Shown piece by piece: positions 1,069-1,170 of a DNA stretch of 4,837 nucleotides (positions within the stretch are counted from its first letter, which is position 1; the number at the start of each line of letters is the position of its first letter). A program made the translations under genes and the position numbers. This DNA is from Escherichia phage CBA6: sequence record KM389299.1. One strand, written 5' to 3'. The notes beneath the pieces were generated by a model. The model had not been told where the DNA came from and did no database searches. It saw only the letters and a list, made by a program, of their open reading frames with translations.

Positions 1069-1170
1069 GACGAGGCCGGATGCGTAAGTTCCGGCAAATC
1101 GATGGTGAGGTGGTGCATTGGTGACACGGGGCAGCGCTCAGAAGTGTGGTTCGATTCCACACCCTCGTCA
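1069..1170 (+). ncRNA. tRNA-like module A: T-arm plus acceptor helix, no canonical anticodon arm found, no encoded CCA
   Basis: T-stem TGTGG (1145-1149), loop TTCGATT, CCACA (1157-1161). GACGAGG (1069-1075) pairs perfectly with CCTCGTC (1163-1169). A D-like hairpin CCGGA/TCCGG (1076-1080 with 1090-1094) follows directly. The 50 nt between could not be folded into an anticodon arm by eye. Confidence 0.3.

Follow-up and report, generated by a model that had tools for sequence, protein, structure and literature searches.

An anticodon-less, tRNA-shaped cassette, probably a genuine nondecoding RNA gene, in the tRNA island of Kuttervirus phages

The DNA analyzed here (the window) is a stretch of 4,837 nucleotides (nt) of Escherichia phage CBA6 (KM389299.1). 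Megablast against GenBank phages identified it as a Kuttervirus (Ackermannviridae) tRNA and noncoding island, with matches in 324 records, nearly all Ackermannviridae, from phages of Salmonella, Escherichia, Klebsiella, Shigella, Dickeya, and related hosts. Kuttervirus phages, SS3/SS9, SeKF_64, CBA120, and ECML-4 among them, match best (94 to 100% identity). Five canonical tRNAs (Met, Trp, Asn, Gln, and Tyr), called by ARAGORN and Rfam, lie at positions 3220 to 4831; CCA is encoded in all five, which score 49 to 72 bits under the Rfam tRNA model. No credible reading frame was found across ~660 to 2800 of the window. In this noncoding part, the initial annotation, made from the sequence alone, had placed a tRNA-like element of about 100 nt (1069 to 1170). 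We find instead a self-contained 67-nt unit, 1104 to 1170, that has an acceptor strand of its own and a true D arm, and we consider it probable that this cassette is a genuine, structurally conserved, anticodon-less RNA gene that does not decode. The cassette is an accessory unit of the island in the genera Kuttervirus, Agtrevirus, and Taipeivirus. Its pairing was tested on 13 distinct sequences out of 28 loci, in which each combination of a sequence and a pair is counted as one cell. The parts of the cassette and its flanks are as follows.

1069 to 1095, plus strand: GACGAGG and the hairpin GGCCGGA-TGCGTAAGT-TCCGGC, the 3' end of an upstream conserved RNA (~668 to 1096), outside the tRNA-like unit
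1104 to 1170, plus strand: whole tRNA-shaped cassette (module A, redefined), 67 nt, ending with discriminator A1170, as delimited by a covariance model and a mosaic block
1104 to 1110, plus strand: acceptor 5' strand GGTGAGG, paired with 1163 to 1169 in 96.7% of cells
1111 and 1112, plus strand: U8 and G9, preceding the D arm
1113 to 1127, plus strand: D arm, stem GTG(C) 1113 to 1116 with (A)CAC 1124 to 1127, loop ATTGGTG
1128, plus strand: G26, between the D arm and the mini-hairpin
1129 to 1139, plus strand: mini-hairpin GGGC-AGC-GCTC, a 4-bp stem and 3-nt loop in the slot of the 17-nt anticodon arm
1140 to 1143, plus strand: AGAA, following the mini-hairpin
1144 to 1162, plus strand: T arm, 6-bp stem GTGTGG 1144 to 1149 with CCACAC 1157 to 1162, loop TTCGATT 1150 to 1156
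1163 to 1169, plus strand: acceptor 3' strand CCTCGTC, with variants CCTCGCC, CCTCTCC, and CTTCGCC
1171 to 1186, plus strand: A-rich spacer preceding a promoter-like site
1187 to 1214, plus strand: promoter-like site TTATCA-N16-TATAGT, 9 of 12 hexamer matches, with TTGTCA in relatives; start of the next conserved block

The initial annotation correctly saw no recognizable anticodon arm; what occupies its slot is the mini-hairpin, which shows both G-U/G-C and C-G/U-G alternation and whose bases pair in 98.1% of cells. Its loop is variable (AGC, GGC, or AAC, and TAGA in Klebsiella phage RCIP0012), so that there is no conserved anticodon, and none of the cassette copies in the alignment has a 7-nt anticodon loop. 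The T arm that had been read as TGTGG (1145 to 1149), TTCGATT (1150 to 1156), and CCACA (1157 to 1161) is present and conserved, with a canonical loop (G53 T54 T55 C56 R57 A58 ... C61) and a stem paired in 100% of cells. The extra C described between T stem and acceptor does sit at 1162, but as the partner of G1144 in a sixth T-stem pair. The absence of a CCA and the A-rich tract after the element were also borne out by the sequence, which runs on as A1170-ACAAAAATAAAA (ACAAAA after A1170). U8, the G18G19 of the D loop, the T loop, the U at position -1 (T1103), and A73 (A1170) are invariant in all intact copies. The acceptor of this phage has five Watson-Crick and two G-U pairs, and the 67-nt unit folded alone is no more stable than its shuffles (z = +0.27); its support is comparative rather than energetic.

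That support lies in the pattern of substitutions. Over its 21 pairs, the redefined structure is paired in 93.3% of cells, and four pairs are changed on both sides compared to 0.3 in shuffles, none of 500 shuffles reaching four. Slid controls were 35 to 64% paired with at most one such pair. The structure initially proposed (17 pairs) is paired in 95.5% of cells, 89% in its acceptor helix, and has two pairs changed on both sides versus 1.0 in shuffles, a value reached by 40 of 500; its upstream hairpin never varies and is therefore uninformative either way. Three of the compensatory changes occur in phage UPM 2146: G-C to A-U at acceptor pair 6-67 (GGCGAAG/CTTCGCC), U-A in the window to C-G at D-stem pair 11-24, where the stem becomes a perfect GCGC/GCGC, and a change to A-U at T-stem pair G1146-C1160. 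The fourth converts the sixth T pair, G1144-C1162, to A-U in RCIP0012. The window and UPM 2146 differ by 12 substitutions, all checked by eye; 10 fall in stems, and pairing is kept or improved. The upstream 7-mer of UPM 2146 is still GACGAGG and would mispair with its CTTCGCC, which is the most direct argument for GGTGAGG as the acceptor strand. The only acceptor failures of the redefined helix are the CCTCTCC variants (U-U at 3-70), and these fail with the upstream strand too.

Searched with a covariance model of the 67-nt unit, each cassette-bearing phage yields one copy, at 75 to 99 bits (95.4 bits for the window copy), and canonical tRNAs score no more than 15 bits, so that the cassette forms a single-copy family without paralogues. 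By blastn it is found in 161 phage records, which, except for a few with odd names, all belong to Ackermannviridae, and the truncated architecture is common to the three genera. Blastn of the cassette against 5,426 Escherichia coli genomes gave no match, and thus no host tRNA ancestor was identified. In IMG/VR, a 16-mer D-arm pattern occurred at 51 loci, of which 9, all on known Ackermannviridae contigs, also matched the T-arm/acceptor pattern. In the JGI metagenomes, a gapped cassette pattern had no match and the T-arm/acceptor pattern had one chance match, on a contig without a tRNA call.

The suspicion that this might be an ordinary tRNA misfolded by eye can be set aside, since neither ARAGORN nor the Rfam tRNA model makes a canonical call. 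ARAGORN reported no tRNA at 1069 to 1170 or in nine loci (all variants tried) and no transfer-messenger RNA (tmRNA) in the window. The Rfam tRNA model (RF00005; gathering threshold, 29 bits) did not match 1060 to 1185 (126 nt) even at E ≤ 10, and in this segment Rfam matched only the 17-nt T arm to a tmRNA model, at 7.7 bits. At permissive thresholds, Rfam returned nothing meaningful on the cassette or on modules B and C described below. Of the attributes of RF00005, the cassette has the 7-bp acceptor with discriminator and the T loop with G18G19; the anticodon arm, the CCA, and the score are missing. For the T-loop consensus GTTCRANYC it reads G-TTCGATT-C, on a T stem of 6 instead of 5 bp. 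SeKF_64 and EP75 are among the few GenBank records that label the exact span 1104 to 1170, as a 67-nt "tRNA-Ala." The alanine identity was rejected, as pair 3-70 is U-G or C-G and never G-U. A tRNA split by a group I intron was likewise rejected, as acceptor strands, D arm, and T arm are contiguous within 67 nt. Nor is the element the type II-like tRNA that had been suggested.

Among relatives, 1100 to 1172 is present or absent as one mosaic block, whose junctions fall within A/T-rich tails. (L002, L008 to L010, and L018 to L021 are locus labels of relatives; L002 is phage Vi01.) Klebsiella phage May and L018, L020, and L021 lack the block, yet they keep the 7-mer (GACGAGG or GGCGAGG) and the adjoining hairpin, which passes straight into the A-rich spacer. 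In Vi01 the slot is filled by another tRNA-like cassette, of 146 nt (TGCGGTG ... GTCGG-TTCGAAT-CCGAC-CACCGCA). L019 has both cassettes in tandem, the Vi01-type first and then CGAT-GGTGAGG...CCTCGCC-A, so that the T arm of the 67-nt unit is ~190 nt from the upstream hairpin with its 5' partner strand still immediately upstream. All that is left in L009 is a deletion relic (GGTGA-TA-CCCTCGCC).

Several observations weigh against a functional RNA gene. The covariation sample is small, and the changes on both sides come from two divergent Klebsiella-phage lineages. Cassette identity between genera is 83 to 85%, no higher than that of the flanks. The stack of acceptor and T stem is 13 bp, one pair more than the 12 bp of ordinary tRNAs. 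The cassette is missing from ~35% of the phages that have the upstream RNA (161 versus 249 records), so any function would be nonessential and the 3' end of the upstream RNA can form without it. Damaged copies occur in phages 241 (D-loop deletion), Mansal (7-nt duplication), SH19/SE14 (T-arm deletion), and kage, in the SFP10-like group (U-U at 3-70), and in L009 (large internal deletion). With many relatives lacking the cassette or carrying damaged copies, its sequence record indicates that it is dispensable. Finally, a literature search on tRNA-like RNA, noncoding RNA, and the transcriptome in Ackermannviridae, CBA120, and Kuttervirus returned nothing relevant and no expression or end-mapping data, which leaves transcription, RNase P cleavage, and CCA addition as inferences.

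Because of the absent and damaged copies, some probability, small but not negligible, is left to a decaying tRNA pseudogene, in which 6 to 7 nt of the anticodon arm were lost and which, no longer functional, would drift and survive only through block recombination of the island. Roughly one relative in three lacks the cassette, at least five lesions are independent, and conservation does not exceed that of the flanks; all this fits decay, as does the lack of both anticodon loop and CCA next to five canonical tRNAs that encode it. Against decay stand the truncated architecture shared by three genera, the invariant U8, G18G19, T loop, U(-1), and A73 of the intact copies, and stem substitutions that are overwhelmingly pair preserving: four compensatory pairs, which no shuffle equaled, and 10 of 12 differences from UPM 2146 in stems with no pair broken. 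We therefore regard the pseudogene as an unlikely reading and the nondecoding RNA gene as the better one.

Two further readings turn on the choice of 5' strand, as both GACGAGG (1069) and GGTGAGG (1104) qualify in the zone, near-identical purine-rich strands 35 nt apart. The 3' acceptor strand could alternate between them, GGTGAGG giving a processable and GACGAGG a sequestered form, and so couple the maturation of both RNAs. In this phage the upstream strand offers seven Watson-Crick pairs versus five plus two G-U for the downstream strand, and pair 1070-1168 has a partial A-U/G-C association (19 of 500 shuffles reach the observed value). The upstream pairing nevertheless contains an A-C mismatch in most distinct sequences, the variation of the upstream 7-mer does not follow the cassette, its conservation is the same where the cassette is missing, and nothing else supports a switch, which makes such a toggle improbable.

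More improbable still is the RNA of about 101 nt initially proposed for 1069 to 1170, in which GACGAGG is the acceptor strand, the hairpin at 1076 to 1094 the D arm, and some 50 nt an irregular long arm. GACGAGG (1069 to 1075) is indeed a perfect Watson-Crick complement of CCTCGTC (1163 to 1169), and the minimum free energy fold of the 102-nt stretch uses this helix and looks as first described (-41.4 kcal/mol, z = -2.07). Pair 1070-1168 is A-U in three distinct sequences and G-C in three, but it is mismatched in the other 7 of 13, and 1071-1167 is mismatched in 3 of 13. The change of UPM 2146 at 6-67 is matched by the downstream and not by the upstream strand. Across homologues, the T arm and the 3' acceptor strand are conserved and the pairing of the upstream 5' strand is not; the 7-mer and hairpin persist in relatives that have no T arm and stand ~190 nt from it in L019. 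The 5-bp hairpin itself, CCGGA (1076 to 1080) with TCCGG (1090 to 1094), exists but belongs to the 3' end of the upstream RNA. A perfect 7-mer complement arises in the 70-nt upstream zone in ~1.6% of composition-preserving shuffles (~12% with G-U). In longer-context single-sequence folds, CCTCGTC takes one or another of three ACGAGG/GTGAGG copies as its partner, depending on the range folded, with a competing ACGAGG at 992 to 997, and thermodynamics therefore cannot choose the partner. Coding by the open reading frame at 1102 to 1266 (54 amino acids), or by the short coding sequences for small "hypothetical proteins" annotated here in some GenBank records, can be dismissed, given frameshifting indels in RCIP0012, 241, Mansal, and SH19, the block deletion of half that frame in many phages, and substitutions that follow RNA pairing.

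The 67-nt unit thus keeps GGTGAGG as its acceptor strand, and GACGAGG falls to its neighbor. The suggestion of a tRNA-like structure within a larger RNA was right in that the element is tRNA-like and adjoins a large structured RNA; it is nonetheless an independent unit, starting 8 nt past the terminal hairpin of that RNA. The neighbor, 668 to 1096, is a block of ~430 nt of noncoding sequence found in 249 phage records at 74 to 100% identity. Across genera it remains alignable, with variable, lineage-specific loop insertions (+55 nt in RCIP0012) and a 5' domain that is swapped (an alternative one in L008, L009, and L010), and a weak promoter-like site, TTTTCA-N17-TAAAGT, lies at 665 to 693. Its end, ...ACAGG(A)CGAGG-CCGGATGCGTAAGTTCCGG-CA..., is nearly unchanged in 17 distinct sequences; the differences are A or G at the second position of the 7-mer G(A/G)CGAGG and transitions in the hairpin 3' arm and first flanking base, of which Vi01 has two and L009 one. 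RNAalifold predicts 103 pairs for the block, 15 with compensatory changes. In this consensus, CUCCCUGUUG at 837 to 846 is paired with 1063 to 1074, using G1069 and G1072 to G1074 (with 837 to 841), and G1075 is paired with C1095 at the base of the hairpin. These pairs are invariant and hence unproven; as modeled, they may be the reason for the conservation of the 7-mer, independently of the cassette. Rfam at permissive thresholds gave no match for the block, which looks like an undescribed large structured phage RNA.

The cassette is accompanied by four more units with a T arm and acceptor and without an anticodon loop, three in the window and one in relatives.

1516 to 1584: module B, 66 nt plus encoded CCA; acceptor ATGGGAG/CTCCAAT (one mismatch) and T arm
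1587 to 1712: module C, 126 nt; acceptor GCCGTT/AACGGC, T arm, encoded CCA, no anticodon loop
4608 to 4743: module D, 136 nt, between tRNA-Gln and tRNA-Tyr; T arm GGGG-TTCGAAT-CCCC, acceptor with 6 of 7 pairs, encoded CCA
L002, 665 to 811, and L019, ~300 to 450: Vi01-type cassette; acceptor, 5-bp D stem, T arm, no CCA, an insert of ~85 nt in place of the anticodon arm

In module B, a 7-bp stem with a GAAA loop replaces both D and anticodon arms, and there is a weak, 17-bit match to the tRNA-Sec model. Module C occurs in 198 phage records, is at least 99% identical in 140 of them, far above the conservation of its flanks, and is unannotated in GenBank; it shows one compensatory pair (GGTCAG/CTGGCC to GGTTAG/CTGACC). 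Module D is full length in only four phage records, Vi01 among them. The Vi01-type cassettes of Vi01 and L019 differ in a compensatory manner at acceptor pair 1-72 and in two internal stems.

Other elements of the island lie between and around these units. Downstream of the promoter-like site at 1187 to 1214 are a 12-bp stem (1234 to 1245 with 1287 to 1298) and a T-rich run (1299 to 1313); 1187 to 1313 is possibly a short RNA of ~90 nt, or a leader, starting the conserved block 1175 to 1484. Perfect inverted repeats of 16 to 18 bp (1711 to 1726/1828 to 1843, 1989 to 2005/2108 to 2124, and 2505 to 2522/2565 to 2582) close modules of ~40 to 100 nt, and mosaic breakpoints between phages lie at or near their arms (~1728, 1843, 1989, and 2490). 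The repeats may serve as processing stems of the RNase III type or mark where shuffled cassettes end; the Rfam "microRNA" matches at 2484 to 2599 correspond to these hairpins. An HNH homing endonuclease gene (2816 to 3229), which overlaps the first bases of tRNA-Met (from 3220) with its 3' end, is interrupted at codon 74, a Tyr codon in SeKF_64, by an in-frame TAA and is therefore a nonsense-mutated pseudogene in this phage. Two records, OR844942.1 ("Enterococcus phage Efm 3-10") and MN871475.1 ("Pseudomonas phage Pa-sanjiao"), contain this Kuttervirus region at 96 to 97% identity; probably their host labels are wrong or the sequences are contaminants.

How might the cassette work? What it retains of a tRNA is the top half with the elbow: acceptor, U8, D arm with G18G19, and canonical T loop. 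For RNase P, the 3'-trimming nucleases, the CCA-adding enzyme, TrmA, and TruB, recognition depends on the elbow and the stack of acceptor and T arm rather than on the anticodon arm. The invariant U(-1) and A73 and the intact stack are consistent with processing. RNase P also processes tRNA-like substrates that are not tRNAs, and T4 tRNAs without an encoded CCA rely on the host nucleotidyltransferase (PMC11143913). As there is no terminator between the ~430-nt RNA and the cassette, and the promoter-like site at 1187 to 1214 follows the cassette, we propose a common precursor that would start upstream of the ~430-nt RNA and have the cassette as its tail. Host RNase P would cut between U1103 and G1104, giving the upstream RNA its 3' end and the mimic its 5' end; trimming would remove the 3' trailer back to A1170, CCA may be added, and a small nondecoding tRNA mimic would be released. 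Having no anticodon, the product is unable to read codons. The role we infer as most likely is that of a processing or punctuation element, or of a stable mimic that occupies a tRNA-binding host or defense factor. When a transcript begins with GG and its acceptor stem is weak, CCACCA can be added to it and the RNA degraded. The window copy (G1, G2-U71, and U3-G70) has these features, and this would favor a transient role in processing.

Since module A is one of a set, a wider and tentative proposal can be built on it, which we think doubtful as it stands: the ~2-kb mosaic island of Ackermannviridae may be an undescribed phage RNA toolkit of tRNA-shaped decoys or competitors, rather than a collection of translation parts or junk. 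Modules A, B, C, and D and the Vi01-type cassette would each keep the top half of a tRNA (acceptor, T arm, and often CCA) with unrelated structures replacing the anticodon domain. Interleaved with the ~430-nt RNA and the long-hairpin modules, they would be cut out by host RNase P and perhaps RNase III, and their targets would be host factors or defense enzymes that recognize the acceptor end or elbow of tRNA.

For annotation, the consequences are more direct. Phage tRNA clusters are usually annotated for canonical tRNAs only, and a nondecoding RNA among them is missed, mislabeled "tRNA-Ala," or buried under spurious reading frames; for the cassette this concerns ~160 sequenced phages of Salmonella, E. 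coli, Shigella, and Klebsiella that are candidates for therapy. The corrected boundaries and the covariance model would repair these annotations. They also draw attention to the neighbors, a much larger unannotated structured RNA next door and the 126-nt module C, and raise the question of whether virulent phages use nondecoding tRNA mimics for RNA processing, for stability, or for interference with tRNA-directed defenses. Mimics of tRNA and tRNA-like small RNAs in phage tRNA clusters are already known, and module A is a further variant.

Compared to known systems, the cassette stands closest in parts to several and coincides with none. Like a canonical phage tRNA, it has a 7-bp acceptor, U8, G18G19, a T loop matching GTTCGAWYC, and a discriminator, and it sits in a phage tRNA array whose units are parted by A/T-rich spacers; unlike one, it has a 6-bp T stem, no anticodon stem-loop, and no encoded CCA and is only 67 nt long. 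All E. coli tRNA genes encode the 3' CCA. With the tRNA-like domain of tmRNA (RF00023 and related families) it shares an acceptor and T arm without an anticodon, but the G3-U70 pair, the encoded CCA, and the tag reading frame with its pseudoknots are absent, its D arm is intact, and it is 67 nt. Species 1 and 2 of phage T4 (RNAs C and D) and the "tRNA-like molecules" of T-even infections are small RNAs other than tRNAs among tRNA genes; they come from tRNA precursors, need host tRNA-processing enzymes, and are dispensable. The cassette resembles them as a small non-tRNA among phage tRNA genes. The T4 RNAs are about twice as long, and no sequence similarity to them was found, blastn matches to the cassette being confined to Ackermannviridae.

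The tRNA-like 3'-end modules of long noncoding RNAs offer a comparison of another kind, as in the mascRNA of MALAT1 and the tRNA-like element of MEN-beta. The tRNA-like RNA of Arabidopsis GUT15 (PMC6152437) and the t-elements of plant mitochondria (PMC1920247) are comparable systems. These systems are eukaryotic or organellar; processing of the phage cassette is a prediction, and the upstream phage RNA does not depend on the cassette, as relatives without it show. What they share with the cassette is a cloverleaf-like unit with a degenerate anticodon arm placed directly 3' of a longer structured RNA, where a cut by RNase P would be expected both to end the upstream RNA and to set free a small RNA of tRNA-like shape. 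Of the two attributes of an RNase P end-forming element, the cassette at 1104 to 1170 presents the position, a tRNA-like fold right behind a longer noncoding RNA; cleavage at its acceptor 5' end and accumulation of the released RNAs would be the other.

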